From assembly GCA_903859075.1 (NCBI GenBank), contig CAIOLF010000046.1, positions 20,671 through 84,670 on the forward strand: a stretch of 64,000 nt of DNA. Direction: 5' to 3'. Positions 4,515 through 43,589 of this stretch are shown piece after piece. The notes under the pieces were generated by a model. The model was not told where the DNA came from, ran no database searches, and saw only the letters and a program-made list of their open reading frames with translations. Position 1 is the first letter of the stretch, and every line of letters begins with the position of its first letter. Position numbers and translations under genes: made by a program. Origin of the DNA: Candidatus Buchananbacteria bacterium (GTDB lineage Bacteria; Patescibacteriota; Patescibacteriia; 2-01-FULL-39-33).

Positions 4515-4544
4515 TAAACTGACTAAATAATAACTTTAAACAAT

Positions 4545-4817: not shown

Positions 4818-4835
4818 AGAAAGCAAGTTTCCCAA

Positions 4836-6670: not shown

Positions 6671-6676
6671 TTATCC

Positions 6677-6745
6677 AGCTCGAAAACGCAAGTTTTTGAG
6701 CTGTTTCTTTTTTTTGCAAAAAAAAGGATCAGCCATAGCCGATCC
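6677..6745. terminator. pair of convergent terminators between 6670 (+) and 6775 (-)
   Basis: cagctcgaaaac-gcaa-gtttttgagctg then a T-run (plus strand). ggatcagccatagccgatcc is followed by a T8 run when read on the minus strand. Confidence 0.55.
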
Positions 6746-11330: not shown

Positions 11331-11359
11331 AAATCCCTCCGCCGCGGCGGAGGGATTTT
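11331..11359. terminator. bidirectional rho-independent terminator between convergent genes
   Basis: aaatccctccgcc-gcg-gcggagggattt, with an A-run on one side and a T-run on the other. Confidence 0.8.
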
Positions 11360-11362: not shown

Positions 11363-11956
11363 TTATTGTTTTCTTTTTATTTCCAGCCAATCCGGTACCG
11401 GAGTAAAAGTAATTTCTTCCAAATGATCTATTTCTTCCTCGGTGACTTCATAATACTTTTGATAAGCCGTTTCCACGCTGCCATGCAGCGCCTCATTCCA
11501 ATCAAAGCCCAGCTTAGCGGCGACCGACCGCACATTTTCTTCCGTCTCCGCCTCAAGCTCCACAAAAGGCGGTATCCACGGCCAGGTGTCAATCGTCACT
11601 TCACAGCCGCTTAGCTCCCACGTTTCGCGCTTAGTCTCCTGATAGGAGCGGCAATCCAGTCCCGTGGCCAAGAGAAAGTCGCAAGCGGCGTCAAAATTAT
11701 CGACATTAAAAACTATTTCCTTCGTCCCCTGAAAAGTCCGGTCAACTAACCGCTTGTAGCTCATCGTAATCTTTTTGCCTTCATCCCGTACTCTGATCCA
11801 GGCGCCGATTTTCTCCAGGCGTTTATCAGAATAATCAAAAATCTTGCGTCGCATCAACACCTCCGCTTGGACTAGAGTCCCGCCATGACTTTTCAGCGCT
11901 TCCCGTAATTGCCGCGGATTAACGTCTAAGAATTTTGCTTCAACTTCAGTCTTCAT
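11363..11956 (-). CDS. CYTH-domain protein (triphosphate tunnel metalloenzyme family)
   Basis: 197 aa; N-terminal EVEAKF (ExExK signature), size and acidic-residue pattern typical of CYTH. Confidence 0.75.
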   Translation of the reverse strand: MKTEVEAKFLDVNPRQLREALKSHGGTLVQAEVLMRRKIFDYSDKRLEKIGAWIRVRDEGKKITMSYKRLVDRTFQGTKEIVFNVDNFDAACDFLLATGLDCRSYQETKRETWELSGCEVTIDTWPWIPPFVELEAETEENVRSVAAKLGFDWNEALHGSVETAYQKYYEVTEEEIDHLEEITFTPVPDWLEIKRKQ

Positions 11957-19005: not shown

Positions 19006-20385
19006 TTATTCTATCACTTTAATAATACTTTTGGCTTCAAAATATTCCAATGGCACGATTTTAACGTCGCTTAAGGCCTGCCTTTCCGGCGAATCTTGGG
19101 GTAAACTGTCAATTCTTGCCTCAAGCCATCGCTTTACTTTGTTGGTTTCATTTTTTGGCGCCCGAATCTCTTTTAGTTGTCCGTTTTCTATCGGCTGTTT
19201 TGTCCTTCTTTCCGAAACCAGCCCTGATGTCAGAGTATCCAAATCTTCCCCTGGCAGATCTTTACCTTCATAAATCAAAATCGTAGGAAAGGGGTCGGTC
19301 ATTTCCTGCCGCATTTCTGGCGTTTCATTCTCATAAGTTCTTATTCCATTTTCCAGTTTCGCGATCTCTTGCGACTTTTTGTCAATTTTCCATTGTTCGC
19401 CTCCCTGCTTTAATCTATCTCTCTCTTCATTCAGCGCAACTAACTTTTTTCTTGATTGTTCCGGGTCAAAATAATATTTTCGTTCCTGCAGTCCCTGCAT
19501 TTTTTCAGCCATTAATTCTTCGTCTGAAATTTCCTTGTCACCTTTCATTATTTTTATGGCGGATTCTACTTGGACTCGCTCCTTAGCGCCGAGCTTTGGC
19601 AATTCTGCAAAAACCGTTTTGACAATATCCTCTTCACAGCCGATTCCCATGATGTCTTTTTTATCCAAAGCCAATCTTGACTGCTGTTCATTTTTCCTCG
19701 CATAAAAATAGCTGACGGTTTCCGATTGATCATAGCCGCCGATTACAAAAGATGTCGTATCAATTTCCTCGCCGGTAGCCGCCTGTTCACCGGTGGCGAT
19801 ATTCTTCTTTGATTCCAATGCCCCGTGTTCCAAAATCTTGGCCAAGCCGTAAGAACCGGTGCTATGGTAAATGGGCATATCGGCCAGAGCTTCCTGGGGC
19901 CGGGAATAATGACCCAGCGCTTCTTCAAAAACCTTCGTCTTTGAGCCATCGCTATCCTTTTCCTTGATAAGCTTTCTGGCTTTGGCAATTACCTCTTCCG
20001 CATTCCCTCCCAGCTCAAGATTATTGAACAATGTCAATCTCTTTTTTTCTGCGGCCAATGAATCGAATCTCTCGTTTTCTTTCTGCGCCTGCTCAATAAC
20101 GCTATCTACTAGATTTGCATGGATCATTTCTGTGCTTTCATCGCCAAGCCTTTTACCAAGTCCGCTCTCCAGTTCTGCGAGTTTTGATTGATATTCCATT
20201 TCCCTTTTAACTTGTATCATATCCATTTCTTCCTGGGTGGCAGCTTTGTGATTATATTCAGCTAATTCTTTATTAATTTGTTCAACTCTACTATTCCTTT
20301 TTTCAGTTATAGTTTGCGGAGCCACCTCGGCTTTTGGCTGTTCAATTATTTCCTTTTTATTGGATTGTTGTTCGTGGTCATTCAT
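19006..20385 (-). CDS. hypothetical coiled-coil protein, Glu/Lys-rich
   Basis: 459-aa ORF, AT-rich. Heptad-like charged repeats. No catalytic motif recognised. Confidence 0.55.
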   Translation of the reverse strand: MNDHEQQSNKKEIIEQPKAEVAPQTITEKRNSRVEQINKELAEYNHKAATQEEMDMIQVKREMEYQSKLAELESGLGKRLGDESTEMIHANLVDSVIEQAQKENERFDSLAAEKKRLTLFNNLELGGNAEEVIAKARKLIKEKDSDGSKTKVFEEALGHYSRPQEALADMPIYHSTGSYGLAKILEHGALESKKNIATGEQAATGEEIDTTSFVIGGYDQSETVSYFYARKNEQQSRLALDKKDIMGIGCEEDIVKTVFAELPKLGAKERVQVESAIKIMKGDKEISDEELMAEKMQGLQERKYYFDPEQSRKKLVALNEERDRLKQGGEQWKIDKKSQEIAKLENGIRTYENETPEMRQEMTDPFPTILIYEGKDLPGEDLDTLTSGLVSERRTKQPIENGQLKEIRAPKNETNKVKRWLEARIDSLPQDSPERQALSDVKIVPLEYFEAKSIIKVIE

Positions 20386-20426
20386 ATATCTCTATTTTAC
20401 CATTATATTAATGAATCTCAAACCGC

Positions 20427-20461
20427 TAAAAACAAGACACCTCCCTAATGGAAGGTGTCTT
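20427..20461 (-). terminator. rho-independent terminator downstream of the TrmB gene
   Basis: Minus-strand reading aagacacct(t)cc-attaggg-aggtgtctt followed by GTTTTTAG. Confidence 0.6.
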
Positions 20462-20547
20462 AAATTTGGGTCGCAACCGTGATTTGCTCATACGGATACT
20501 AGCGGATCCAGAGGAGATTGGCTTAATTAAACAGAGATTAAAAAATA

Positions 20548-21348
20548 TTAAACAGTCTTCAGGAATGAATCCGTATACTTAGGTTGCGGTTTTACCGGTT
20601 TGGAAATTTTCCAAATCACCTCAAATTGCTGTTTCATTAAGTTAGTGAAGTCCCTGCTATGCACTACAAAGCCAAAACTTTCCGCCTCGGAAGAAATAAA
20701 AGCGATCTTATCGGAGTACAGCCAATAGCTCATATCCCAATTCATTGGGGACGGTGCGATTCTAAGCTCCCTTAAATGCCCCTTACCAACCCCCAAAAAA
20801 GGATATTCCTTAAGCTTAACCGCTTTATTCGCTGGCCAAATCCCCTTAATTGAGATTTTTTGCTTGATTCTTTTACGATTTAAATCTTCCAAATACTCTC
20901 TTCCCAAGATGTCAACCATATCACTAATCGGCCACATAGTATAGGTTTCTATATTATCATGCCAAAGCATATCTCGCAGTACCTGTCTGATGCCGTCTAT
21001 CCCTGAATAAAATTTAATCTTCGGCTCCAAGGCTGGGCTTGTTTTCAAATTAGACCGCCAATCCTTTATCTTCTTTTTTGCCTTGTTTAGATTATCAATT
21101 TTATCGTCTAATAATCTCTCAAATTCATTTGGCTCATCAATATTAAACATTTTTTTCCCATTTTGTTCCTTTTCGACGACTAAACTATTTTTAATGAGGA
21201 TGCCCAGATTGTCATAAATAGTCGCGCGTGGCAAACCTAAATTCTCCGCCAATTGCCGAGCGGACAAATACCCGGCTTCCGCCAATTTCAAATAGATTCT
21301 ACTGGCAATCTCCGGGATGCTGAGTTCTTTTAAAATCTTATCAATCAT
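20548..21348 (-). CDS. TrmB-family transcriptional regulator
   Basis: 266 aa; N-terminal wHTH LSIPEIASRIYLKLAEAGYLSARQLAENLGLPRATIYDNLGILIKNSLV plus a TrmB-type C-terminal domain. Divergent from the downstream operon. Confidence 0.75.
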   Translation of the reverse strand: MIDKILKELSIPEIASRIYLKLAEAGYLSARQLAENLGLPRATIYDNLGILIKNSLVVEKEQNGKKMFNIDEPNEFERLLDDKIDNLNKAKKKIKDWRSNLKTSPALEPKIKFYSGIDGIRQVLRDMLWHDNIETYTMWPISDMVDILGREYLEDLNRKRIKQKISIKGIWPANKAVKLKEYPFLGVGKGHLRELRIAPSPMNWDMSYWLYSDKIAFISSEAESFGFVVHSRDFTNLMKQQFEVIWKISKPVKPQPKYTDSFLKTV

Positions 21349-21473
21349 ATGACTATATTGATTGTCGCTTGCCGACGGCAGTTTGACACTATTTATTATA
21401 TAGGTTTAAATTAAATAAATCAAATTACGGTATCTGTGCCCGAATATCTTCTAAATTATTAACTAATTGCAAT

Positions 21474-22115
21474 ATGATCGAGAAAATAAAGCACTCAAAG
21501 AAAGTAATTAACGAAGCAATGAATCGGCATCCCAAAATCGCCTTAGCCTGTTCATTTGGCAAGGATAGTATGGTTTTATTGCATTTGGCGCTTCAGCTTA
21601 AGCCGGATATGCCTATTTTTACAATTATGACTCCATTCAAGCCCCGGGAAACCTTTGAGTTTAAGGATCTGGTAACTAAACTTTGGAATTTAAATATTAA
21701 AGAATACATCCAAAAAGATAATATTGGAGCTGAAAAAGAAAAATTATGGCTGAATAATCCAGAAAAATGTTGCGAGTATTTCAAGGTAGAACCAACAATC
21801 AAGGCAATTGACGGTCTGGATGCTTGGATTACCGGCCTGAGGAATACGGAGGGCGAAACTAGAAAAAATTTTAAGGAAGTTGAGCATAAAAAGATAATTA
21901 AAATTAATCCTATTCTTGATTGGACGGAGTTAGATATTTGGCGCTACATCGCTTTTAATCAAATCCCCGTGCATCCCTGGTATAAAAATGGGTACAGAAG
22001 TTTAGGCTGCGAGCCCTGCACTGCTATTATTGCCGATGATCAATCAGAAAGATCCGGCAGATGGCAAAGGACTAATAAATGCGGAGGAGAATGCGGAATA
22101 CATACAAAAATTTAA
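21474..22115 (+). CDS. APS/PAPS reductase family protein (CysH-like, with Fe-S cysteine pattern)
   Basis: 213 aa; SFGKDS PP-loop, CC..KVEP, SLGCEPCT, C-terminal ECGIH catalytic motif. Confidence 0.8.
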   Translation: MIEKIKHSKKVINEAMNRHPKIALACSFGKDSMVLLHLALQLKPDMPIFTIMTPFKPRETFEFKDLVTKLWNLNIKEYIQKDNIGAEKEKLWLNNPEKCCEYFKVEPTIKAIDGLDAWITGLRNTEGETRKNFKEVEHKKIIKINPILDWTELDIWRYIAFNQIPVHPWYKNGYRSLGCEPCTAIIADDQSERSGRWQRTNKCGGECGIHTKI

Positions 22116-23063
22116 TTGCCTGTCGGCACATCTTATATGAAGGACTTGCTTCATTATATTGGCAATACGCCATTAATAAAATTAACCGGGTTCACAACCC
22201 AAAACGATGCCACAATATATGTGAAATTAGAACACTTAAATCCTGCCGGTACGCATAAAGTACGAGCATATTTGAACATGATTGAAAAAATAGAACGGGA
22301 TAAAAAAATCACCAAGAATACGATTTTTGTAGAAGCATCAAGCGGTAATTCAGCAATTGCCGGGGCGTTTATTTGCGCCGTAAAAGGATATAAATTCAAA
22401 GCTTTTATCCCAGATTATGTTTCCAAAGAAAGAGGCAAGATAGTAAAAGCTTACGGAGCGGAGGTTGTGATAAGTAAAATGGAATCTCCATCGCGCCATA
22501 AAGAACAAGCTTTGGAATTCATAAAGCAAGATCCTCAAAATAGAATTTTTATTAATCAATATAATAATTCGGCCAATCCTGAAAGTTTTAAAATTTTAGG
22601 AAAGGAAATTTATAAAAATTGCAATGAAAAAAAAATTATTCCGGACTACTTTTTGTCTGGCGCCGGAACTTATGGACTAATCACGGGGGTGGCTATAAGC
22701 CTTAAAAAATACTATCCAAACATTCAAACTATTCTTATAGAATCACCAACTGCTCCCTATATCCATGCCAAAAGGAATAACTATACTTTTTTGTATCAAA
22801 TACCTGAACTAACCGGGATGGGAGGCGCGTCACTTCCCAAAATTGCCGATGAAAAATTATATGACATTGCGGATGTGGCCGATGAAAAAGATGCCGTAGC
22901 AATGACTAGAAAGTTGGCCAAAGTCGGTTTATTTGTAGGAAAAACATCGGGGGCTAACATCGATATGACTATTAAATATGCTAGAAAACTCGGAAAAGAA
23001 AAAATTATTATCACTAACACGTTTGATACCGGAGAAAGATATTTAAGCGAAAATTTATGGTGA
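22116..23063 (+). CDS. PLP-dependent fold-type II enzyme of the cysteine synthase (CysK/CysM/cysteate synthase) family
   Basis: GNTPLIKL, lysine in KLEHLNPAGTHKVRAY, SSGNSAIAGAF, glycine loop SGAGTYGLITG. The true start is probably ATG at 22137 (MKDLLHYIGNTPL). Confidence 0.75.
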   Translation: MPVGTSYMKDLLHYIGNTPLIKLTGFTTQNDATIYVKLEHLNPAGTHKVRAYLNMIEKIERDKKITKNTIFVEASSGNSAIAGAFICAVKGYKFKAFIPDYVSKERGKIVKAYGAEVVISKMESPSRHKEQALEFIKQDPQNRIFINQYNNSANPESFKILGKEIYKNCNEKKIIPDYFLSGAGTYGLITGVAISLKKYYPNIQTILIESPTAPYIHAKRNNYTFLYQIPELTGMGGASLPKIADEKLYDIADVADEKDAVAMTRKLAKVGLFVGKTSGANIDMTIKYARKLGKEKIIITNTFDTGERYLSENLW

Positions 23064-24145
23064 ATAAAATCCCAAAAATATTCCGAGGAACGCCGTTGCA
23101 TTTGTCAAAATCCGGCCGACTGAATGATTTCGCATATTTGATGATCAACTTGCCATTTTTGTGTAATTACAAATGCAAAAAATGTTTTAATTTGAAAAAT
23201 AATAACTTTTATATTCAAGATAATCCAATAACTACGGATAAAATATTCAAATTAATAAAAGAAGCGAGAGACATGAATGGGAAGGCGGTTATTTTGGCGG
23301 GAGAGGGGGAACCCAGTTTACATAAAAGTATTAAAAAAATTGTCAAAAAGATCGATTCTTCGGGCATGATGACTATTATTTATAGCAATGGAAGTACTCT
23401 AACGGAAGAACTGATTGGCTTTTATGCCGCACACAATGTTTCGTTGGTTATCAGCTTTGATTCATTCTTACCCGAACTCTACCTTAAGTTAACCGGCAAC
23501 AATGATAAAAACATTTTTTTGCAGGTTCTAAAAAATATCAAACAGGCAAGGAAAATTTACGGCAAACTTATTCGGCAGGAAAATGGCTGCCGAGTTGTTA
23601 GATTGGCCTTTAATGCCACTGTTAACGGCTTAAATAAAGAGGAAATGAAAAAAATTAAAGAATTCTGCGGCGATGACATATATTTCATTTGTAATCCATT
23701 GGCTAAATTAGGGAATGCCGTGGGTAATTGGGATGAATTATCATTGGGTAATGACAATTATAAAGAGATTGAGCAGATTATAAGGGAGCTATCAGAGAGT
23801 ACTGGTCCGCTTACCCTGGGCAGCAATGGCCTTTGCGGATACTCAAGTAATGGCATTGCCATTAGCCCCGCCGGAAATTATATGACTTGCGCCTACACTT
23901 CAGCGACGGACGGATTATTGGGAAACGTCTTTAATAAAACATTGTCAGAAAGCTATGCCTACAAGAAGAACCAGGAGCAAAAATTTTATAACACTTATGG
24001 TAATTGTCCGTGCTTGGTTAGATCGCCTAAATTTAAAACATATGTGGAAACATTAGAAAAACAAATTAAAATGAATAATATCTCAATTTATAAAAATTCT
24101 TTAGTTCAACTCCCTTCCTTGCCCAACAAAAAATACCCCAATTAA
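23057..24145 (+). CDS. radical SAM protein with C-terminal Cys-rich SPASM/twitch-like region
   Basis: 362 aa; CNYKCKKC (CX3CX2C), GEGEPSL, C-terminal ...GLCGY...MTCAYT...GNCPCLV. Overlaps the previous gene by 7 nt, so an operon. Confidence 0.75.
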   Translation: MVNKIPKIFRGTPLHLSKSGRLNDFAYLMINLPFLCNYKCKKCFNLKNNNFYIQDNPITTDKIFKLIKEARDMNGKAVILAGEGEPSLHKSIKKIVKKIDSSGMMTIIYSNGSTLTEELIGFYAAHNVSLVISFDSFLPELYLKLTGNNDKNIFLQVLKNIKQARKIYGKLIRQENGCRVVRLAFNATVNGLNKEEMKKIKEFCGDDIYFICNPLAKLGNAVGNWDELSLGNDNYKEIEQIIRELSESTGPLTLGSNGLCGYSSNGIAISPAGNYMTCAYTSATDGLLGNVFNKTLSESYAYKKNQEQKFYNTYGNCPCLVRSPKFKTYVETLEKQIKMNNISIYKNSLVQLPSLPNKKYPN

Positions 24146-24212
24146 GGGATATTTTTTGTTTTTGTACTCATTTATCCTAACAATTAATCTAGGTATAATA
24201 AGTACCAAAATG

Positions 24213-24287
24213 GGTGAGTGACCGGGGTTGAACCGGCAACCGCTCGGACCACAACCGAGTGCTCTAACCAATTGAGCTACACTCACC
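24213..24287 (-). tRNA. tRNA-His (anticodon GTG), with encoded G-1; CCA not encoded
   Basis: Sense sequence GGTGAGTGTAGCTCAATTGGTTAGAGCACTCGGTTGTGGTCCGAGCGGTTGCCGGTTCAACCCCGGTCACTCACC folded by hand: 8-bp acceptor including G-1:C73, anticodon loop TTGTGGT. Confidence 0.85.
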
Positions 24288-24291
24288 ATAA

Positions 24292-24363
24292 TGCTCCCAC
24301 CAGGACTCGAACCTGGATTTTAGGTTCCGGAAACCCATGTTCTATCCCTTGAACTATAGGAGC
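24292..24363 (-). tRNA. tRNA-Arg (anticodon CCG)
   Basis: Sense GCTCCTATAGTTCAAGGGATAGAACATGGGTTTCCGGAACCTAAAATCCAGGTTCGAGTCCTGGTGGGAGCA: cloverleaf folded by hand, T-loop TTCGAGT, anticodon loop TTCCGGA. Confidence 0.8.
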
Positions 24364-24407
24364 TGAATTGTTTTATCAAAATAGATTAGTTCAATTCCTA
24401 TCTTGAC

Positions 24408-24482
24408 TGGTGTCCCCGCTAGGAGTCGAACCTAGATCCAGAGCTTAGAAGGCTCTTGTTCTATCCGTTGAACTACGGGGAC
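24408..24482 (-). tRNA. tRNA-Arg (anticodon TCT), CCA encoded
   Basis: Sense GTCCCCGTAGTTCAACGGATAGAACAAGAGCCTTCTAAGCTCTGGATCTAGGTTCGACTCCTAGCGGGGACACCA; anticodon loop CTTCTAA. Confidence 0.85.
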
Positions 24483-24530
24483 AAAAAACTTTTAATACAA
24501 CTAAAATAATAACAAAAAAACCCGAAAAAG

Positions 24531-25820
24531 TCAAATACTTTGCCCCTTTTGCCCAGTATTTTTAATAAATGACAAATTCTTATAAATCCCGCCGAAGAGC
24601 TTGATAAAGATTATTAAAACCGCAAAACATAAAATTGCCCAGGCTAAATTAAGCGGAGCCAAAAAACTGTAAAAACTAATAAAGGCAATCAGCAGCCAAG
24701 CTATCTTCTTTTGCCATAAAAACATAAAGCTGAGCGGAATGATAAAGTGCCAAGGATAGGACAGGCACAACAGCAATAATGGCACCAGCAAAGAGGCCAG
24801 AGCGCCGGCTCCGATGTCAGAGATTTTCCCTTTCCAAAACAATCTATAGATAAACAAATACAGCGCTAAAAAAATGATCAAAGAAACCATGACTCCCTCG
24901 GCCGAGCTAAGCCAAGGGAAAAAATCATAAATCAGCAATTTGCCCCGGCCCATTCCTCCGCCGCTGCCGCCGATAAAAGCGGCCCTGATCATCGGCCAGA
25001 ATTTAAATCCTAAAATCAGCTTAAGCAATAAAAGAGAAACGCCACCGGTAATAACAAAATAAATAAATTTTCTGACAATATTCTTTTTGCCGCACCAAAA
25101 AGGCAGCAGGAACCAGCCGTAGATTTTTACCAGTCCCGCCAAAGCGCCGAGCCAAACGCCGAATAATTCTTTTTTCTGGACATACCAAGCAGAAAGCAAT
25201 AAAGCGGCAATAAATATATCCGCGTGCGGCGTCGCCAGATTATTAAAGAGCAGCACCGGACAAAGCAAAAACAGATAAGCCAGCTGTTTTTTACCCGTTA
25301 ATCTGTAAATCAAATAAGCCGACCAAAGGTAGCCAGCCAGATTGAATATTTTAAGTCCTGCCAATCCCAGCCATAATTTATCTAGGGATATAAAATTAAT
25401 CACCACCATCGCCAGCTGCCACAACGGCCCGTAGGGACTGTAAATTTTGGTCCACCAGATATGATAAAAATACGATGAATACTGATCGGCCGGCAGATTA
25501 ATTGGCAGTACCTCATAGGGTGAAGCGTGGTAAGAAGCGATCATCTTTCCGTCAAACAGATAGCGGAAAATATCATAGGAAGTTGTCGGCACGGAAAAAA
25601 TAGCCAAGGCCATAACCGCTAGCGGCAGCAACCATAGCCAACGGGAAATCTTCTGTCTTAGAAACAGAAAAAATAAAACCGCAAAAATAAAACCGCTAAT
25701 AATATACCAAATAGAAGTGAACTCATACGTCGGCTTCTGAACGTATGAATTGAAAAAAATAATGAAATTAACAACCAGATAAGCAAAGCAAAAAAATAAA
25801 CTGCTGATTTTTTTTATCAT
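24531..25820 (-). CDS. polytopic membrane protein, GT-C-type glycosyltransferase-like (DUF2029/GT87-like)
   Basis: 429 aa, more than 10 TM helices. A periplasmic-loop motif SYDIFRYLFDGKMIASYHASPY resembles mannosyltransferase-like GT-C proteins. Confidence 0.45.
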   Translation of the reverse strand: MIKKISSLFFCFAYLVVNFIIFFNSYVQKPTYEFTSIWYIISGFIFAVLFFLFLRQKISRWLWLLPLAVMALAIFSVPTTSYDIFRYLFDGKMIASYHASPYEVLPINLPADQYSSYFYHIWWTKIYSPYGPLWQLAMVVINFISLDKLWLGLAGLKIFNLAGYLWSAYLIYRLTGKKQLAYLFLLCPVLLFNNLATPHADIFIAALLLSAWYVQKKELFGVWLGALAGLVKIYGWFLLPFWCGKKNIVRKFIYFVITGGVSLLLLKLILGFKFWPMIRAAFIGGSGGGMGRGKLLIYDFFPWLSSAEGVMVSLIIFLALYLFIYRLFWKGKISDIGAGALASLLVPLLLLCLSYPWHFIIPLSFMFLWQKKIAWLLIAFISFYSFLAPLNLAWAILCFAVLIIFIKLFGGIYKNLSFIKNTGQKGQSI

Positions 25821-25977
25821 GAGGAAGATTAAGCCCCAAAATTCGGAGTTTTAGCCGCTTCCAGGGGCGTTTTATAGATGAATTTTACCCTTATTTTTAT
25901 TATTTTTCAAGCCGGCAACCCTTTGATTATCACCTAAATTATGCTAGAATAGACCTATTAAAACCTCACCCAATCTT

Positions 25978-27024
25978 ATGAAATCCAACCATAACCAAAA
26001 AGTGATTGAATCCCTGCTGGCCCTGCCTGATCAGCTCTCTTCTGCCTGGCAGGAAGGGCAATTTCTCAACGTCAAAAAACTTAGCGGCACAAAATTCAAA
26101 AACATCGTCTGCTGCGGCATGGGCGGCTCCAATCTGGCCATGGAGCTGGTGCGCTCGGTCTACGGCCACCAATTGAAGGTGCCGGTCGTTCTTGTGCGAA
26201 ATTACCATCTGCCTACATTTGCCGGCAAAGACAGTCTGATTATCATCTCCAGCTACTCCGGCACGACCGAGGAAACAATCTCCTGCCTGCGGGAAGCCCG
26301 CCCTAAGAAGCTTAAAATCTTCTGTCTTTCCACTGGCGGCGAAATAATCAGCCAAGCCAAGCGTTACAAATTGCCCTATTACTTGCTGGACCTAAAAAGC
26401 AACCCTTCCGGCCAGCCGCGCTATGGCATCAACTCGCAAATCGGCATTCTCATCGCTTTGCTAAGTAAGCTAAAAATTATCAGCGCTACCACTCGAGAAA
26501 TAGACGCTCTCTCCGCCAACCTAAAAAATCTCAACTTCTCTTATTGGAGCAAAAACGGCGAAGCCAACCCGGCCACTGATCTGGCAGCTCAGCTCGCCAA
26601 CAAGAGCATCATCATCGTCTCAGCTCAATTCCTGGCCGCCAACGGCCACATCCTGGCCAATCAGATAAATGAAAGCGCCAAACAATTGGCCCATCCCTAT
26701 CTTCTGCCGGAACTCAATCATCATCTGCTTGATGGCCTGGCCTTTCCCCGCTCTGTCTCCAAAGCGACAAAATTTGTTTTCCTTAATTCTTCCAACTACG
26801 AAAATAATATCCATAAACGAACAGCCATAACTCAAAAGATATTGAGCCGGCAAAAAATTTCCTTTGTTAATCACTTCTCTCCCGCCTCCAGCCGCTTGGC
26901 CGCTGCGCTAGAAATATTGCTCTTCGGCTCCTGGGTCAGCTATTATCTCAGCGAAATCAATGGCGTCGATCCGACCGATGTTCCTTGGGTGAAATTTCTC
27001 AAAGCGGAACTTAAAAAAAATTAA
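25978..27024 (+). CDS. SIS-domain bifunctional phosphoglucose/phosphomannose isomerase (archaeal-type PGI/PMI)
   Basis: 348 aa; IVCCGMGGSNLAMEL, LIIISSYSGTTEET, FCLSTGGE; two SIS halves. Confidence 0.7.
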   Translation: MKSNHNQKVIESLLALPDQLSSAWQEGQFLNVKKLSGTKFKNIVCCGMGGSNLAMELVRSVYGHQLKVPVVLVRNYHLPTFAGKDSLIIISSYSGTTEETISCLREARPKKLKIFCLSTGGEIISQAKRYKLPYYLLDLKSNPSGQPRYGINSQIGILIALLSKLKIISATTREIDALSANLKNLNFSYWSKNGEANPATDLAAQLANKSIIIVSAQFLAANGHILANQINESAKQLAHPYLLPELNHHLLDGLAFPRSVSKATKFVFLNSSNYENNIHKRTAITQKILSRQKISFVNHFSPASSRLAAALEILLFGSWVSYYLSEINGVDPTDVPWVKFLKAELKKN

Positions 27025-27145
27025 GGTACTAATATACGAATTATGCTAATGAAACTAATGGATACTAATAATAAATTACTAAAAAATAATTCGTAACCAT
27101 TCGTATCATTAGTATCTATTAGTATATTAGTATCTTTAATCCCTT

Positions 27146-28765
27146 ATGTTGACTTTTAAGAAAATTAATCATCAGCTGATCAATAACCAGTTCCTTGCCG
27201 GATTGGTTGTTTTTTTAATCTCGCTTATCATCTTTTCTTATCTGCAATTTTATCCCGGCATCAACGACCCGGATGCCTTTTACCACGTCAAAATTGCCCA
27301 GCTGATGAGCCAGCGGGGACTGATTACCGATTTCCCCTGGATGCAATTTTCCACCTGGAAAGACGGCTTTGTCGACCACCATTTCCTCTACCACGTGCTG
27401 CTGATACCCTTTGTCAGTTTTTTGCCGCCGCTTATCGGCGGAAAAATCTTTCAGATCATTCTCTGCTCTTTAGCCGTACTCGCCTTTTATTGGATGTTAA
27501 AAAAACTAAAAATCAAAGCCGCTTTCTGGTTTACTCTCGTCTTATTCCTGGCGCCATCGCTGCTCTTTCGCGTCAGCTTGGTCAAGGCGCAGCCGCTATC
27601 GCTGATAATCCTTTTTATCGGCTTGCATTTTATTTTCAATAAAAAACATTTTTCGCTTTTTTTAACCTCGCTGATTTACGTCCTGAGCTACGGCGGCTGG
27701 ATTTTGCTGCCGATTTTTTCCGTGCTTTACGCGCTGGTCGCGGCCTTTGATCAAGCGCTCCAATCCCTGCCCCAATTGCCCAAAAGCTACTGGCGCGCCG
27801 GCTGGCAACTGCTGCTTCGCTCATTAAAAAATTTATTCTCTTCCAAACTGTTTTGGCCGCTGGCCGCCTTTTCCGGCGCGGCCGCCGGACTGATTATCAA
27901 CCCTTTCTTCCCGCAGAATATTAATTTTTACTGGGTGCATATTTTCAAAATCGGCCTAATCAACTATCAAAAATACGTCGGCGTCGGCGGCGAATGGTAT
28001 CCGCTGAACTTTTCCGATTTGGCCTACCACGCGCTTATCCCTTTACTGCTGGCGACTATCGGGGCCGGCCTGCTGTTGTTTTATTTCCGCTCCAGCCGCA
28101 CCCCGGCCAAATTCTTCCTACTAAGTTCTTTTTTGCTACTGCTTTTGACGCTTAAATCACAACGAAATATTGAATACTTAATTCCTTTTTTGGTCGCTTC
28201 CGCCGCCGGCTCGCTTAATCTTTTCTGGGAAAACCAGCAGGCCCAAAACTGCCTGCTTCAGCTGGCCGGCAAGCTGAAAAAACTTTTTCCTGAAGCTTGG
28301 GTCAAAAAAACTGCCTGGTCGTTGGCTATCGTCATGCTTCTTTGTCTGGGAATTTTCTGCTTAGTTGACGCCAAAAAAAGATTAACGGACACCTCATTTT
28401 CCTTTGACTATTTAGGCGGCGCTTCGCGCTATCTGGCGAGCCACAGCCAGCCGCGCGATCTGGTGCTAAACAGCAACTGGTCCTATTTCCCGATGCTGTT
28501 TTATCATAATGACAAAAATTATTACGTCATCGGGCTTGATCCGACATTCATGTATCTCTATGATAAAAATCTGCAGAAAAAGATGATTGATATTACTTTG
28601 GGTAAGAGATATGAAGAGGCCTACGGAATCATTAAAAATGAATTGCGGGCAAAATACGTCCAAGTGGAAGCGAAGAATACCCTGTTCAAAAGCATCTTGG
28701 ATAATAACTTCAAATTCAAGAAGGTTTATGAAGACGGTGAAGGAGCGATTTATGAAGTGCTATAA
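27146..28765 (+). CDS. polytopic membrane glycosyltransferase, GT-C fold (ArnT/PMT/STT3-like) with C-terminal soluble domain
   Basis: 539 aa; about 12 TM helices, DPDAFYH in the first extracytoplasmic loop, C-terminal globular domain of about 120 aa. Confidence 0.5.
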   Translation: MLTFKKINHQLINNQFLAGLVVFLISLIIFSYLQFYPGINDPDAFYHVKIAQLMSQRGLITDFPWMQFSTWKDGFVDHHFLYHVLLIPFVSFLPPLIGGKIFQIILCSLAVLAFYWMLKKLKIKAAFWFTLVLFLAPSLLFRVSLVKAQPLSLIILFIGLHFIFNKKHFSLFLTSLIYVLSYGGWILLPIFSVLYALVAAFDQALQSLPQLPKSYWRAGWQLLLRSLKNLFSSKLFWPLAAFSGAAAGLIINPFFPQNINFYWVHIFKIGLINYQKYVGVGGEWYPLNFSDLAYHALIPLLLATIGAGLLLFYFRSSRTPAKFFLLSSFLLLLLTLKSQRNIEYLIPFLVASAAGSLNLFWENQQAQNCLLQLAGKLKKLFPEAWVKKTAWSLAIVMLLCLGIFCLVDAKKRLTDTSFSFDYLGGASRYLASHSQPRDLVLNSNWSYFPMLFYHNDKNYYVIGLDPTFMYLYDKNLQKKMIDITLGKRYEEAYGIIKNELRAKYVQVEAKNTLFKSILDNNFKFKKVYEDGEGAIYEVL

Positions 28766-28777
28766 TGTCCAAAACTA

Positions 28778-28806
28778 TTGACAAAACACAAAAAGTATGC
28801 TATAAT
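28778..28806 (+). promoter_or_regulatory. perfect-consensus sigma-70 promoter TTGACA-17-TATAAT
   Basis: ttgacaaaacacaaaaagtatgctataat read directly; about 150 nt upstream of the lipoprotein ATG. Confidence 0.55.
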
Positions 28807-28954
28807 TATATTTATACTACCTTATTAGCAAATCTGTGATTTTAGCTAAAATATAATAAATAATCCCAAAGTAGCTAAGATTATAGGTTTGGAAATAATG
28901 TAATCAACAGTACAAATGGTCGACTGCCAAAGGCAGCGACTTAGGGAGAATACA

Positions 28955-29344
28955 ATGAAAATGAGTTCTTTCGCGATCCTGGCTGCTCTGGCGATGATCC
29001 TGGCACTGGGCAGTGGCTGTGCCACCAGCGGGCCGGAATACGAGCGGAGCGCCTTTCATCAGGTCGTCGCCGGCCTTGACCACCCTCTTCGTGAGGGCGT
29101 GGTCGAAAACGGGCGTGACTATTCGGTAACCGTTTCAATCGACGGTGGCCCAGAGAAGTCGATTCCGGCCAGGTGTTTTACCACAATGTGCGCTCATGCC
29201 AATGCTAAATCGCACTTCGTGGTGAAGGCGGGATCAAGAGTCGTCTATGACGGCTACTACCCCATCTACAACGAACCCCTGGGCCACCTGTACGTGATGC
29301 CCGGGGGAAAAGGCATGGATACCGGCTGGATCTTCGGGATCTAG
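28955..29344 (+). CDS. putative lipoprotein (GC-rich, about 62% GC), function unknown
   Basis: Start at ATG 28955 with AGGGAGA upstream; signal peptide MKMSSFAILAALAMILALGSGC with a lipobox-like LGSGC. The ORF-track start 28916 has no RBS. Confidence 0.55.
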   Translation: MKMSSFAILAALAMILALGSGCATSGPEYERSAFHQVVAGLDHPLREGVVENGRDYSVTVSIDGGPEKSIPARCFTTMCAHANAKSHFVVKAGSRVVYDGYYPIYNEPLGHLYVMPGGKGMDTGWIFGI

Positions 29345-29363
29345 CCACAACCGTAAAACAAAA

Positions 29364-29410
29364 CCGCGGCGGGAAGCATGTTTGCGCTTCCCGCCGCGTT
29401 TCCTTTTCAA
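29364..29410. terminator. bidirectional GC-rich terminator between the lipoprotein and the first pilin gene
   Basis: ccgcggcgggaagc-atgtttgc-gcttcccgccgcgg, flanked by A/T runs on both sides. Confidence 0.8.
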
Positions 29411-29419
29411 AAAATAATT

Positions 29420-29851
29420 TTATCCGGCCGTGCCCCCGGCAGCTGTCTTGCCAATCTGAGCGATTACGAAAGAGGTAATGGCATAAGCCATAAAAATAAT
29501 CACAATGGCGACAACGCCCTGAATGATGGTCTTTCTGGCTTTGGTAATTTTAGTTTCATCGCCTTGAGCCATCATCCACATGAATCCGGCGTAAATAACG
29601 ATGAGCACGAACACAACGCCGAGCAGTCCCAGTAAGACCCCAACCACATTGCCGATGGTCTTCGGCAGATTGGCGCCCTCACCGCCTAATTGCTGAAGTC
29701 CAGTGGCCGTAAGATTTCCTTCTATATTGGTCACAATATCGGCCGAGGCCGGATGTACCAGGCCTAGCCCCAAAACCGGCACGGCCAGGAACATAACCAC
29801 CATCAGAAAAGAAAATAGATGTTTTCTCTTTTCCTTTAATAATTTTTTCAT
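29420..29851 (-). CDS. TrbC/VirB2-like (T4SS-type) pilin family small membrane protein, paralog 5 of 5
   Basis: 143 aa; N-terminal signal/TM, conserved C-terminal block IYAGFMWMMAQGDETKITKARKTIIQGVVAIVIIFMAYAITSFV shared with neighbours. Confidence 0.6.
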   Translation of the reverse strand: MKKLLKEKRKHLFSFLMVVMFLAVPVLGLGLVHPASADIVTNIEGNLTATGLQQLGGEGANLPKTIGNVVGVLLGLLGVVFVLIVIYAGFMWMMAQGDETKITKARKTIIQGVVAIVIIFMAYAITSFVIAQIGKTAAGGTAG

Positions 29852-29953
29852 AGCTTTTTAGTTAATTTTATATTAATTATTTATTTTTACTTTCAATCAC
29901 TTAGGCGGACTGCCGCCTAAGCCATGAAAACAATCTATCTAAACTAGAAGATT

Positions 29954-30364
29954 CTATCTGAACTTGAAAATATTGACCACAAACGACGTAATACCATAAG
30001 AAAGCATGACAATAATAAACCCAGTGAGTGCCGTAATGATTATATTGCGAGCTGATTTTATTTTTGTCTCGTCGCCGCGAGCCAGCATCCACATTACTCC
30101 GGCATAAATCGTCAAGACCAGAAAAAGAACTCCGATACCGGCCAGCACTGTTTTAATCACATTGCCGACAAAACTCGGCAGACTGGTCGATCTATCCAGA
30201 CCGGTGCCGGCGACCGCTCTCCTCAGTCCGGAAATCGGATTTACCGTGTCCGCGGCATAAACGGCGGTAAAACAAAAAATCCCTACAAGCAGAAAAAACA
30301 GCAAGGTGCTCAAAAAACGATAATTGATTTTATTTTTCCAAAGCATTTTTCTGGGTTTAATCAA
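29954..30364 (-). CDS. TrbC/VirB2-like pilin family small membrane protein, paralog 4
   Basis: 136 aa; IYAGVMWMLARGDETKIKSARNIIITALTGFIIVMLSYGITSFV. Confidence 0.6.
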   Translation of the reverse strand: MIKPRKMLWKNKINYRFLSTLLFFLLVGIFCFTAVYAADTVNPISGLRRAVAGTGLDRSTSLPSFVGNVIKTVLAGIGVLFLVLTIYAGVMWMLARGDETKIKSARNIIITALTGFIIVMLSYGITSFVVNIFKFR

Positions 30365-30403
30365 GGGGGGCGTAAAAACGCCCCCTTTGTTAAATTATAT
30401 TTA

Positions 30404-30781
30404 TTACACTGTGGCGTTGCTCTGGGCAGCCAAGCTGCCAATAACAAATTGGGCGATGGCGAAAGCGGCAAAAATAACCACCAAACCGATAATACCGGCG
30501 ATGATGAGTTTTTTGGCTTTGGTCACCTTTTCTTCGTTGCCGGCAGCAGTCATCCACATAAAACCGCCGTAAAGGATGATAAGAACCGCTACGACGCCGA
30601 GCAATCCCATAATGACATTGACGATGCCGCCAATCATCGGGACAAATTCCGCAGTGCCGCCTCCGGCTGCTTCTCTGAAATTTGTAAAGTTCTCACTTTG
30701 GGCAAAAACGATGGCTGGCATAATGAAGGCCATAACAGCCGCGGAAATCGCAGAAATCTTAATTAAAGCTAATTTTTTCAT
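30404..30781 (-). CDS. TrbC/VirB2-like pilin family small membrane protein, paralog 3
   Basis: 125 aa; signal peptide then LYGGFMWMTAAGNEEKVTKAKKLIIAGIIGLVVIFAAFAIAQFV. Confidence 0.6.
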   Translation of the reverse strand: MKKLALIKISAISAAVMAFIMPAIVFAQSENFTNFREAAGGGTAEFVPMIGGIVNVIMGLLGVVAVLIILYGGFMWMTAAGNEEKVTKAKKLIIAGIIGLVVIFAAFAIAQFVIGSLAAQSNATV

Positions 30782-30926
30782 GTTGTCACCCCCTTTCTTG
30801 GCCTCGCTTTATAAAAAAAATTATTAGCGAGAGTTGTTATTTATATACTAATTATAAAACATTCTGCTGATTTAAGCCACTATTTATCCACACTAAAACA
30901 AAAAAAATGCGCCTAATTTGGAGCAA

Positions 30927-31292
30927 TTATCTCGCCGAAGCTCCCGGCGTCGGATAGCCGAAGGCGTTGAAAACAAGCACCAAGATGCTATAAGAGGCAA
31001 AAATAATCACCAGACCGGCCACCGCCCAGATCATGGTTTTTTTGGCTTTGGTAATCTTTCCGGCATCGCCGCCGGAAGTCATCCAAGTAAATCCCGCCCA
31101 AATAAAAGCCAGTAAAGCGATTACGCCCAACATTCCCAGCGTGACATTGAGGGCATTGCTTAGCATCGCCGATAAGTCCGCTGCCGGAGCTGCCGGATGA
31201 TAAGTAACGCTGTCCGCCTGGGCATGGACCGTACCGGCAAACGCTAGCCAGGAAACAGTCGAGGTAAACGATGCTAAGAAAAATTTCTTCAT
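30927..31292 (-). CDS. TrbC/VirB2-like pilin family small membrane protein, paralog 2
   Basis: 121 aa; signal peptide (...AGTVHA) then IWAGFTWMTSGGDAGKITKAKKTMIWAVAGLVIIFASYSI. Confidence 0.6.
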   Translation of the reverse strand: MKKFFLASFTSTVSWLAFAGTVHAQADSVTYHPAAPAADLSAMLSNALNVTLGMLGVIALLAFIWAGFTWMTSGGDAGKITKAKKTMIWAVAGLVIIFASYSILVLVFNAFGYPTPGASAR

Positions 31293-31299
31293 AGAATAA

Positions 31300-31779
31300 T
31301 TATTGGCCGCCGCACTTATACGTCTGCAAACTGCTGCTTTTTGTCATTGCGCTCAAAGCGCTAGGAAAAGCGCCGGAAGGAGAGCTGCCGTAGAAAGCAA
31401 AAACTAAAGTGTTGGCCAAGGTCCAAGAAGCAAAAATTATCAGCAGGCCGACCAGAGTGGCAATGATGATATTTTTCCCCATAGTAATGCGATCGCTGCC
31501 ATAAGCGGTGATCATTATGATGCCGCCGATAATAAACATCAAAATGGCAATCGCTCCCGAGAAAGAAACAATCATGTCCGACGCATTAACGCCCACCTGA
31601 ATTAGATCGCAGGGGGTGCAATTGCCGGTGCCAATGCAGCCAGGGCTGACCCCTTGCATTAAGTAGGCGCCGCTGCCTGCGCCGCCTTCGTCCGCAGCGC
31701 CAGCCGCTGAGGCCAAAAAAACATTAGCGCCAAGAATCAGGCTCATAACGATTAACATTGTCGCTGCTATTTTTTTCAT
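31300..31779 (-). CDS. divergent member of the same small-membrane-protein family, Cys-rich ectodomain, paralog 1
   Basis: 159 aa; signal peptide, CIGTGNCTPC, then ITAYGSDRITMGKNIIIATLVGLLIIFASWTL (weaker match to the family block). Confidence 0.5.
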   Translation of the reverse strand: MKKIAATMLIVMSLILGANVFLASAAGAADEGGAGSGAYLMQGVSPGCIGTGNCTPCDLIQVGVNASDMIVSFSGAIAILMFIIGGIIMITAYGSDRITMGKNIIIATLVGLLIIFASWTLANTLVFAFYGSSPSGAFPSALSAMTKSSSLQTYKCGGQ

Positions 31780-31792
31780 AAGTCAAGGTTAC

Positions 31793-33211
31793 TTATTTTT
31801 TCGCCGGCGGGATCGGATCGGGAAGATTCTGCTCAGTGTCCACCGTCTGGGCGATTTTTTCCAACGCTATGCTCAGAATATCTTTTATCTGCCTGGGATC
31901 GGTTGCCGCCAGATATTTGTCGATCATCTCCGCGAAAGCGGCTTCGGCTGCCTTCGGCTCTTTGCCCTTATACCAAGTCTTGGCCGTCAAAATCTGGGAA
32001 ACTGAAGGGTATAAATCCTGATCTTCGATTTGCTTTTCGATTAATTTTTTGAGCGCCGTCGGACGCTTGGTCTTGTCTAAGAATTTTTTGGCCTCCGCGT
32101 CCTTGGTGGTGGCAAAAAGCACAAAATCCCAGGCTTCATCTTTATATTTCGTTTTTTTAGAAACCGACTCCACCCAATAATCGGCATAATTAGCCGTGGG
32201 GTTGCCGGGAATCTGGGGGATCGGCGCGATAGTAAAATTAAGCTTGGGAGCGCGAGCCCGGATAATCGGAATTTGAAAATTATAATCAAGGATAAAAGCC
32301 GTTTTTCCCGAAAGAAAAGTCTCAAAAGCGCTGCTGGCCATGGAGCCGTTCCAGCTGTAAACGCCCTTTAAGGGATTGGCAAAATCAGTATAAAACTGCA
32401 AAGCTACCTGTCCCTCGCTCTCCTTCTCGCCCTTTTTGGGAGTAAAAAATGTCGGTTGTCCCAAGGGGCCGGCCATCTGGGCGCCGTTCTGCATCATTAA
32501 GACGGAAAGGATGTCAAAACTTTGCTCGACGTTGGCGCCGGTACCCAAGGCCGCGCCCGAGAGAATAATATTATTATCCTGATCTATCTTGGTTATTTTT
32601 TGGACTGCCTGCTGAAATGATTTCCAATCAGCCGGCACCTGGGAGATTCCGGCCTGATTAAGAATGTCTTTATTATAAAACATTATCAAACTCTCCAAGC
32701 TCAGCGGCAAGCCGTAGACTTGCTGACGCAAAATAACGTCATCAGCGACAGTATCAGCGAACAATTCTTTAAGCTGACGCAGGCTGGGCGTCGGTGAAGT
32801 CTTGAGAGTGACAACCGTTTCCTTTTTAATCGTGCCTTGAATTTCTGAATAAGCCATGGTTAACTGGGACGGCATCGGCTCGATCTTGGCCTGATAACTT
32901 CTTATCCAACTCTGAGGGATGGAGAAAATGTCCGGCCCGCGATCCTCGGCTAAAGCATTTAAAAGCTCCGTCTCGTACTCCTCATAACGGAATTTGCGGT
33001 AATTAATCCTGATATTGGGGTGAGCCGTCTGATAATCCTTGATAATATCAGTAAAAGAATCGTCATCATCCCAAACACGCCAATAATTAAGAGTGATATC
33101 TTTCATTTTTTCCTGGGTCTGCTGATCCTGGAGCTTGCAGCCGAAGCCGGAAGTTATTAAGAAAACGGCTATGAGCGATAAACTTAATATGCGGGAATAG
33201 CTATTCTTCAT
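31793..33211 (-). CDS. extracellular solute-binding protein family 1 (ABC-type sugar-binding-like) lipoprotein
   Basis: 472 aa; signal plus lipobox-like ITSGFGC, SBP_bac_1-like N-terminal block LNYWRVWDDDD...PDIF. Heads the pilin operon; no permease or ATPase genes are adjacent. Confidence 0.7.
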   Translation of the reverse strand: MKNSYSRILSLSLIAVFLITSGFGCKLQDQQTQEKMKDITLNYWRVWDDDDSFTDIIKDYQTAHPNIRINYRKFRYEEYETELLNALAEDRGPDIFSIPQSWIRSYQAKIEPMPSQLTMAYSEIQGTIKKETVVTLKTSPTPSLRQLKELFADTVADDVILRQQVYGLPLSLESLIMFYNKDILNQAGISQVPADWKSFQQAVQKITKIDQDNNIILSGAALGTGANVEQSFDILSVLMMQNGAQMAGPLGQPTFFTPKKGEKESEGQVALQFYTDFANPLKGVYSWNGSMASSAFETFLSGKTAFILDYNFQIPIIRARAPKLNFTIAPIPQIPGNPTANYADYWVESVSKKTKYKDEAWDFVLFATTKDAEAKKFLDKTKRPTALKKLIEKQIEDQDLYPSVSQILTAKTWYKGKEPKAAEAAFAEMIDKYLAATDPRQIKDILSIALEKIAQTVDTEQNLPDPIPPAKK

Positions 33212-33214
33212 AAA

Positions 33215-33259
33215 AATGTCTTAAATTATAATGTCTTAAATTATAATGTCTTAAATTAT
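33215..33259. repeat. three tandem copies of a 15-bp unit (aatgtcttaaattat), each carrying TATAAT on the minus strand, starting 4 nt upstream of the SBP start codon
   Basis: Read directly: aatgtcttaaattat x3 at 33215-33229, 33230-33244 and 33245-33259. Confidence 0.85.
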
Positions 33260-33346
33260 AAAAAATGCCCTAAATGATCGTGCCTGGCCTCAGCAATTCA
33301 TTAATTTTATTATAGCATATTTACGCGTATAATAAAAAATATCTCC

Positions 33347-33375
33347 TTGACAAAAATAAAGTCGCCTTGTATACT
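33347..33375 (+). promoter_or_regulatory. near-consensus sigma-70 promoter TTGACA-17-TATACT
   Basis: ttgacaaaaataaagtcgccttgtatact; followed by an AAGGAGA Shine-Dalgarno and ATG at 33435. Confidence 0.55.
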
Positions 33376-33434
33376 AATTTTTGGTCGCTCAGTACAGGCG
33401 GCTGTAGTGTAAGTCAAATCAAGGAGAAATAGGC

Positions 33435-33824
33435 ATGGCGAGTAAAAAGACGAATGTATGGGAAACAATCATGGCCTCGTTAAATGAGGACGAGGACGCC
33501 GCGGTCTGGCAAAAGCTGCCCAAGGACGATGATGCCGGACTGCCTAGCGGGATCCACGCCTGGCAAATCAACTTGGCCCTAATGAGAATAATCCGGGCCA
33601 GTGATCCGCCCAAACGCCTGCACCGGCGCCTGGTGCTCGCGGTAATCCATAACTCGGCCATTAACGCCGACGAGACGCAGTATCGGGCTGAGGCGGCCAA
33701 AGTCATCCGGCTGCTCTTGGGCCGAGAATTGCTGCAAGACGCCCTCGATGAGGCAGTCGGCGACAAGCGAGACAACTTGGCCGCTCTTCGAGACGAAGTT
33801 ATCCAATTGGACGTGGGGAAGTAG
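33435..33824 (+). CDS. hypothetical protein (GC-rich, about 60%), last gene before the palindrome axis
   Basis: 129-aa ORF with a strong promoter and Shine-Dalgarno; Asp/Glu-rich N-terminus. No motif recognised. Confidence 0.55.
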   Translation: MASKKTNVWETIMASLNEDEDAAVWQKLPKDDDAGLPSGIHAWQINLALMRIIRASDPPKRLHRRLVLAVIHNSAINADETQYRAEAAKVIRLLLGRELLQDALDEAVGDKRDNLAALRDEVIQLDVGK

Positions 33825-33844
33825 AACGACGGGGATACCTCCCT

Positions 33845-33890
33845 TATGACACAAAAGGTTCGGACTTAAGTCCGAACCTTTTGTGTCATA
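33845..33890. repeat. axis of the window-scale inverted repeat; locally a perfect hairpin gacacaaaaggttcggac-TTAA-gtccgaaccttttgtgtc centred on CTTAAG
   Basis: Read directly; the centre lies between 33867 and 33868. Confidence 0.9.
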
Positions 33891-33910
33891 AGGGAGGTAT
33901 CCCCGTCGTT

Positions 33911-34300
33911 CTACTTCCCCACGTCCAATTGGATAACTTCGTCTCGAAGAGCGGCCAAGTTGTCTCGCTTGTCGCCGACTGCCTCATCGAGGGCGTCTTG
34001 CAGCAATTCTCGGCCCAAGAGCAGCCGGATGACTTTGGCCGCCTCAGCCCGATACTGCGTCTCGTCGGCGTTAATGGCCGAGTTATGGATTACCGCGAGC
34101 ACCAGGCGCCGGTGCAGGCGTTTGGGCGGATCACTGGCCCGGATTATTCTCATTAGGGCCAAGTTGATTTGCCAGGCGTGGATCCCGCTAGGCAGTCCGG
34201 CATCATCGTCCTTGGGCAGCTTTTGCCAGACCGCGGCGTCCTCGTCCTCATTTAACGAGGCCATGATTGTTTCCCATACATTCGTCTTTTTACTCGCCAT
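33911..34300 (-). CDS. mirror copy of 33435-33824: hypothetical GC-rich protein
   Basis: Identical protein on the opposite strand at 67735 - x. Confidence 0.55.
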   Translation of the reverse strand: MASKKTNVWETIMASLNEDEDAAVWQKLPKDDDAGLPSGIHAWQINLALMRIIRASDPPKRLHRRLVLAVIHNSAINADETQYRAEAAKVIRLLLGRELLQDALDEAVGDKRDNLAALRDEVIQLDVGK

Positions 34301-43252: not shown

Positions 43253-43327
43253 GTCCCCGTAGTTCAACGGATAGAACAAGAGCCTTCTAAGCTCTGGATC
43301 TAGGTTCGACTCCTAGCGGGGACACCA
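43253..43327 (+). tRNA. mirror copy: tRNA-Arg (TCT)
   Basis: Reverse complement of 24408-24482. Confidence 0.85.
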
Positions 43328-43371
43328 GTCAAGATAGGAATTGAACTAATCTATTTTGATAAAACAATTCA

Positions 43372-43443
43372 GCTCCTATAGTTCAAGGGATAGAACATGG
43401 GTTTCCGGAACCTAAAATCCAGGTTCGAGTCCTGGTGGGAGCA
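43372..43443 (+). tRNA. mirror copy: tRNA-Arg (CCG)
   Basis: Reverse complement of 24292-24363. Confidence 0.8.
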
Positions 43444-43447
43444 TTAT

Positions 43448-43522
43448 GGTGAGTGTAGCTCAATTGGTTAGAGCACTCGGTTGTGGTCCGAGCGGTTGCC
43501 GGTTCAACCCCGGTCACTCACC
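43448..43522 (+). tRNA. mirror copy: tRNA-His (GTG)
   Basis: Reverse complement of 24213-24287. Confidence 0.85.
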
Positions 43523-43589
43523 CATTTTGGTACTTATTATACCTAGATTAATTGTTAGGATAAATGAGTACAAAAACAAAAAATATCCC

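Follow-up and report, generated by a model that had tools for sequence, protein, structure and literature searches.

A 60-kb palindrome in a Patescibacteria contig is very probably an assembly or library fold-back at a native terminator hairpin

Genes and features of the locus

The window, that is, the whole 64,000-nt stretch of DNA analysed here, carries a gene-bearing left arm that closes with a small gene and a hairpin, followed by a right arm that is the reverse complement of the left. The features referred to throughout are given below, with coordinates in the window; L001 and L002 are two metagenomic relatives that are described further on.

3735-33867, + strand: left arm, in all likelihood genuine Patescibacteria chromosomal sequence, which goes on leftward to position 1
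33347-33375, + strand: promoter-like site (TTGACA-17-TATACT) upstream of the 129-aa gene
33422-33427, + strand: ribosome-binding site AAGGAG, 7 nt before the ATG of the 129-aa gene, read directly from the sequence
33435-33824, + strand: last apparently genuine gene, with an ATG start, encoding a 129-aa protein to which no function is assigned
33855-33880, + strand: putative intrinsic-terminator hairpin with an 11-bp stem (stem AAGGTTCGGAC at 33855-33865, loop TTAA at 33866-33869, stem GTCCGAACCTT at 33870-33880)
33866, + strand: loop base T (C in relatives), by which the hairpin becomes perfectly palindromic with zero spacer (CTTAAG)
33880/33881: probable artefactual junction, at which the alignment with L001 and L002 ends
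33881-64000, - strand: probably spurious mirror copy, the reverse complement of 3735-33854

In positions 1-33,867, 37 ORFs were scanned against Pfam, and the matches in the left arm were to cellular housekeeping and envelope genes. These encode a P-type ATPase, an Hsp20 protein, a NUDIX protein, a cyclopropane-fatty-acid-synthase-like methyltransferase, a DEAD-box helicase, a peptidase S51, a PAPS reductase, a PALP enzyme, a radical-SAM protein and a phosphoglucose-isomerase-like SIS protein, as well as a solute-binding protein (SBP_bac_1; 31793-33211, - strand). Homologues of the latter are labelled by their sources as Patescibacteria, Buchananbacteria, Uhrbacteria or Parcubacteria. The same scan of 37 ORFs returned no protelomerase, telomere-resolvase, tyrosine-recombinase, integrase or other recombinase domain. 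The left arm also contains a cluster of three tRNA genes (His/Arg/Arg). A megablast search of positions 20000-33867 gave only a tRNA-His match among phages and no match among plasmids, so that the stretch corresponds to no mobile element on record. Judged by its sequence, the left arm is best assigned to chromosomal Patescibacteria DNA, and not to a phage or plasmid.

Several other features of the left arm were recorded. Five tandem paralogues of small T4SS_pilin/TrbC-like membrane proteins (121-159 aa; 29420-31779, - strand) adjoin the SBP_bac_1 gene, and this arrangement of pilin-like cluster and SBP_bac_1 is kept in the relatives L004-L009. Between the cluster and the ORF at 28916-29344 (+) sits a strong bidirectional terminator-like hairpin at 29365-29398, with 13-14 pairs (11 of them G-C) and T-runs on both strands. 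The ORF at 9339-11330 (+) encodes a 663-aa protein in which a weak N-terminal nucleoside 2-deoxyribosyltransferase-like match is combined with a polyprenyl synthetase domain, an unusual fusion. It converges with the gene at 11363-11956 (-), and between the two lies a 30-nt perfect zero-spacer palindrome, AAAATCCCTCCGCCGCGGCGGAGGGATTTT (11330-11359), which is longer than the 26-nt native palindrome at the axis described below and looks like a bidirectional terminator. Further to the left, the region 4400-6700 has a raised G+C content (0.515) and a strong AT skew (0.25); the Lys/Arg-rich ORFs within it (4545-4817, 5049-6113 and 6038-6670) gave no Pfam match.

The gene that closes the left arm encodes the 129-aa protein, for which no Pfam match was obtained. 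Near-identical variants of this protein, with 2 aa differences, are encoded by L001 and L002, and a homologue with 48% identity is found in L004. With its promoter-like site (also present in L001, at 1283-1311), its ribosome-binding site and three substitutions only against its relatives, the gene looks real.

A perfect palindrome centred 43 nt past the last stop codon

A repeat search revealed that positions 3735-33867 and 33868-64000 form a reverse-complementary inverted repeat of 30,133 nt per arm, with 100% complementarity and a spacer of 0 nt, and a base-by-base comparison of the two arms found 0 mismatches. The axis falls between 33867 and 33868, within CTTAAG and 43 nt 3' of the stop codon at 33824. 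A first-pass annotation of this DNA had placed a CTTAAG-centred axis past the stop codon of the last gene, and both the sequence and the ORF end at 33824 proved to be as it described them. On either side of the TTAA at 33866-33869 stand gacacaaaaggttcggac (33848-33865) and gtccgaaccttttgtgtc (33870-33887). The right arm holds mirrored versions of the 129-aa gene (33911-34300) and of the tRNA cluster (43253-43523). As the right arm ends at 64000, together with the window itself, the figure of 30,133 nt per arm is a lower bound. The one contig from which an identical 129-aa protein is recorded, in NCBI and ENA, measures 109,074 nt; if all of it is palindromic, each arm may be as long as 54.5 kb. 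The number of perfect palindromes with 13-nt arms expected in 33.9 kb of this composition is 0.0006, and the palindrome is thus not explicable by chance.

The hairpin at the axis has the anatomy of an intrinsic terminator

The stem of the hairpin at 33855-33880 starts 30 nt past the stop codon at 33824, and the hairpin is co-oriented with the 129-aa gene and preceded by an A-tract. It consists of 11 pairs, 6 of which are G-C, closed by a 4-nt loop, and in the window strain the whole element is a 26-nt perfect palindrome. RNA folding gave -17.7 kcal/mol (z = -5.3) for the TTAA loop of the window, and -17.8 kcal/mol (z = -3.8) for the CTAA version of L001. In both L001 and L002 the hairpin reads AAGGTTCGGAC-CTAA-GTCCGAACCTT and is followed by the tail CTTCTTTTTT, and a terminator scan of L001 1200-1996 returned hairpin and tail as the sole terminator-like site. 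In the window, the hairpin is followed by TTTT and then GTGTCATAAGGG, which is not a proper T-tract, and it was missing from the list of sites that the scan returned for the window; the tract is missing because the mirrored left arm stands where the tail would be. The earlier description of a stem-loop followed by a T-rich tract thus stands as regards the stem-loop, and as regards the tract in the relatives, but fails for the tract in the window itself.

The more distant relative L004 (Logan SRR23086384), in which the solute-binding protein is 84% identical to that of the window, provides a further comparison. Downstream of its homologue of the 129-aa gene, L004 reads AAGGTTCGGAA-AATC-TTCCGAACCTT and then CTTTTTATT. 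The stem is thus the same, with a compensatory change from C-G to A-T at the apical pair, while the loop is different and a T-tract is kept directly 3' of the stem (CTTTTTATT, as against CTTCTTTTTT in L001 and L002); the sequence past the T-tract is partly conserved with the other relatives. Since the stem, through a compensatory change, and the T-tract are both kept in L004, 33855-33880 can be considered a conserved intrinsic terminator, and everything in its sequence marks it as the ordinary rho-independent terminator of the 129-aa gene. It shares with intrinsic terminators the G+C-rich 11-bp stem, the 4-nt loop and, in the relatives, the T-tract after the stem, and nothing about it is unusual save that the T-tract of the window has given way to the mirrored left arm. 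An Rfam search of L001 and L002 gave nothing significant.

Relatives depart from the window at the foot of the stem

L001 (ENA ERZ27247850, MEGAHIT contig k141_856419, 1996 nt) and L002 (JGI 3300027896, Ga0209777_10212074, 1549 nt) are metagenome contigs that were reached through the near-identical variants of the 129-aa protein in a protein collection. They derive from separate samples and separate pipelines, and are 100% identical to one another across 1482 nt. Both align to positions 32542-33880 of the window with 98.0% identity, so that the comparison is one with 98%-identical relatives and not with the window's own sample, and in both the match extends no further than 33880, which is the foot of the stem and lies 13 nt right of the axis. 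At this point the two contigs read ...GACACAAAAGGTTCGGAC-CTAA-GTCCGAACCTT, then CTTCTTTTTTATAAAAAATTTGATATTTAAATC..., and run on for a further 180-225 nt; past the hairpin they have CTTCTTTTTTATAAAAAATTTG..., a T-tract followed by sequence that is absent from the window, and in L001 the tail directly past the position equivalent to 33880 begins CTTCTTCTTTTTTATAAAAAATTTG... In contrast, the window past GTCCGAACCTT reads TTGTGTCATAAGGGAGG..., the reverse complement of its own left arm, and from 33881 on nearly every position differs between the window and L001 and L002. When the downstream sequence of the relatives was searched for in the window, chance matches only were obtained, of 15 nt or less and with E>2. 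No long inverted self-match was found in any of nine related loci. The first-pass annotation had supposed a short native palindrome around cggacTTAAGtccg, with everything to its right a copy of the left arm, and had predicted a divergence at about 33882. The course of L001 and L002 agrees with both suppositions, the observed divergence at 33881 being one base off.

An exact 22-nt pattern, GGGGATACCTCCCTTATGACAC, was also searched for in viral, genome and metagenome collections and gave 0 matches in them; the relatives carry a SNP inside this pattern (33835 A/G). A degenerate hairpin pattern, AAAAGGTTCGGACNTAAGTCCGAACCTT, retrieved L002 only from the metagenome collection and nothing from the genome collection. 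A same-strain contig, ERZ1426812 (6124 nt), stops about 100 nt before the axis; it and ERZ1426843 are contigs of the same study, known from gene tables alone. Altogether, contigs of five assemblies terminate within about 300 nt of the axis.

Origin of the mirrored half

As the relatives share the hairpin with the window and then continue into unrelated DNA, the mirrored right half is to be seen as an assembly or library fold-back artefact. That the 60-kb palindrome arose by such a fold-back at a native terminator hairpin, and is not biological, is in our estimate very probable (roughly 0.92). The window displays identical arms, no spacer and mirrored genes, and L001, L002 and L004 all continue past the hairpin without a mirror. 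Perfect arms with zero spacer over 30,133 nt are, moreover, the product expected of a graph that visits the same nodes twice. The fold-back could have originated in library preparation or amplification, or in the strand-symmetric graph of the assembler. In either case the path would have followed the left stem to the loop, turned there, returned through the right stem and then run along the reverse complement of the sequence just traversed, the true downstream DNA being skipped in favour of the mirrored left arm.

The base in the loop bears on how an assembler would treat this hairpin. The TTAA allele, in the reconstructed native sequence, contains self-reverse-complementary k-mers up to k=25, with six at k=21, whereas the CTAA allele contains 0 at k of 15 or more and has a perfect arm length of 1 at the axis. 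The default starting k in MEGAHIT and SPAdes is 21, and a fold-back junction in a strand-symmetric de Bruijn graph is therefore to be expected for the TTAA allele only. The C-to-T change in the loop would have produced the perfect 26-nt palindrome, and with it, at k of 25 or less, a point at which a de Bruijn graph can fold back. An origin of the TTAA from a single template switch on a CTAA loop was rejected by reasoning: the centre would have stayed CTAA or TTAG, and perfect symmetry would be lacking. The simplest account of T33866 is accordingly a true SNP of the strain.

We also considered whether a perfect palindrome longer than k suffices for a fold-back, and rejected this, since the palindrome at 11330-11359 was assembled through normally. 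An extra condition is therefore needed, namely chimeric reads or loss of the true continuation. In three other assemblies the true continuation comes to an end 85-225 nt past the hairpin, in or just after a strongly structured, GC-rich element; being hard to assemble and dead-ending, it could thus have been pruned. Removal of this short true branch by tip-clipping would have left the fold-back path as the sole remaining extension. Alternatively, real fold-back chimeric reads may have supplied the extra ingredient.

Contigs of this kind have been met before. Contigs in which the second half exactly mirrors the first were discarded as artefacts from SPAdes assemblies of M. bovis isolates (PMC9455707), and mirrored contigs were likewise reported as artefacts in single-cell cyanobacterial genomes (bioRxiv 10.1101/2023.06.06.543983). 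The 'chimeric hairpin' edges of the rnaSPAdes paper join an edge to its own reverse complement and lead to a chimeric palindromic sequence (bioRxiv 10.1101/420208). The window resembles these palindromic ('hairpin') de Bruijn contigs, and fold-back chimeric reads, in the joining of an edge to its own reverse complement. In contrast to them, however, the seed of the fold is here pinned to a specific native terminator hairpin and a loop SNP, and the arms, of at least 30 kb and possibly 54.5 kb, are of unusual length.

A chimera formed specifically by template switching in MDA (phi29), as suggested in the first-pass annotation, would be a sub-case of the artefact, and one that we regard as possible but doubtful. 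In its favour, Patescibacteria samples are often low-biomass filtrates. MDA chimeras are, furthermore, mostly inverted (more than 85% inverted sequences), and in more than 70% the complementarity that primes them is 2-21 nt long (Lasken and Stockwell 2007, PMC1855051), so that they have in common with the window an inverted junction primed at short self-complementarity. They typically show a deletion between the inverted segments, though, whereas the window has none; SPAdes assemblies of isolates sequenced without amplification yield palindromic contigs as well (PMC9455707), and nothing shows that the sample had been amplified.

A real palindrome, be it a giant inverted duplication or a hairpin-closed linear replicon, would have come about through in vivo fold-back replication at the SNP-perfected terminator, and this we hold to be most improbable. 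For the duplication, a fold-back during replication or repair at the terminator hairpin is envisaged, leading to a genuine giant palindrome on the chromosome or on an amplified episome, and the fold point is indeed a native hairpin, at which biological fold-back priming would also occur. However, 0 mismatches and 0 spacer over 30 kb demand an extremely recent event, and all relatives run on normally past the hairpin. A reduced genome would be unlikely to carry 30 kb or more of housekeeping genes twice, and the giant perfect palindrome would need stable upkeep. Work on SbcCD in E. coli has established that long perfect palindromes in bacteria are either unstable or lethal, and to our knowledge giant perfect palindromes are not tolerated by the bacteria studied so far. 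The artefact, on the other hand, is common and documented (PMC9455707; 10.1101/420208), and a duplication in vivo is thus very unlikely. The other form, a covalently closed hairpin telomere of a linear replicon, in which the assembler read round the tip and the axis is the true molecular end, had been put forward as an alternative in the first-pass annotation. Such a closed end, when sequenced through, would be expected to yield a zero-spacer palindrome, as would the protelomerase telomeres of phage N15 (TelN/telRL), Borrelia (ResT) and Agrobacterium (TelA) when the end is read round, and several contigs do end near the axis. The proposal is nevertheless contradicted by the relatives, since the 98%-identical contigs extend 180-225 nt past the hairpin in non-mirrored sequence and L004 likewise continues. 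In place of an extended conserved palindromic target site there is a native palindrome of 26 nt, interrupted at the loop in relatives and with the anatomy of a terminator, T-tract included; no resolvase-type domain occurs among the 37 ORFs of 1-33,867, the 34 kb examined; and the gene content is that of a Patescibacteria chromosome, with no relevant match in phage and plasmid collections. A telomere at this position is therefore hardly credible.

Implications for the deposited contig

With a fold-back artefact as the preferred reading, the main value of the case lies in quality control, and the contig should be trimmed at the axis. The deposited contig, probably of 109,074 nt, carries a mirror duplicate of at least 30 kb, which would inflate the genome size, double single-copy markers and tRNAs and distort estimates of completeness and contamination, and which might be misread as an inverted terminal repeat or a hairpin telomere. 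Beyond this, the case pinpoints where the fold-back is likely to have nucleated, at a native terminator hairpin perfected by one loop SNP, and a simple recipe results for detecting and trimming such fold-backs. On this reading there is no new biology at the locus: the palindrome is not a real feature, and the hairpin is an ordinary terminator.

Sequence beyond the terminator in relatives

About 45 nt past the terminator, the relatives carry a GC-rich branched hairpin element (L002:1365-1432, equal to L001:1857-1924, and L004:1-35 on the minus strand), and L001, L002 and L004 all end inside or just past it. With a folding energy as RNA of -42.3 kcal/mol (z -4.6), the element precedes TGTTTTTT, and L004 shares the sequence at its start, CGCYTTCGCTCGKCTT. 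No Rfam family matched the element (L002:1365-1432); a small RNA, a convergent terminator and a dispersed repeat are all possible identities. The flank of the SBP gene that faces the axis differs between relatives, with Laminin_G_3 in L004, Wzy_C and Polysacc_synt in L006 and Cation_efflux in L007-L009. The sequence past the terminator thus varies from one relative to another, a possible reason for the breaks that assemblies show here.

At the opposite end of L001, positions 1-514 are AT-rich and show no similarity to the window, and an SBP ORF (387 aa, partial) runs uninterrupted through the stretch. L002:1-22 matches the window at the point where L001:1-514 departs from it. The mismatch reflects either a mosaic or recombinant SBP gene or a chimeric MEGAHIT contig.
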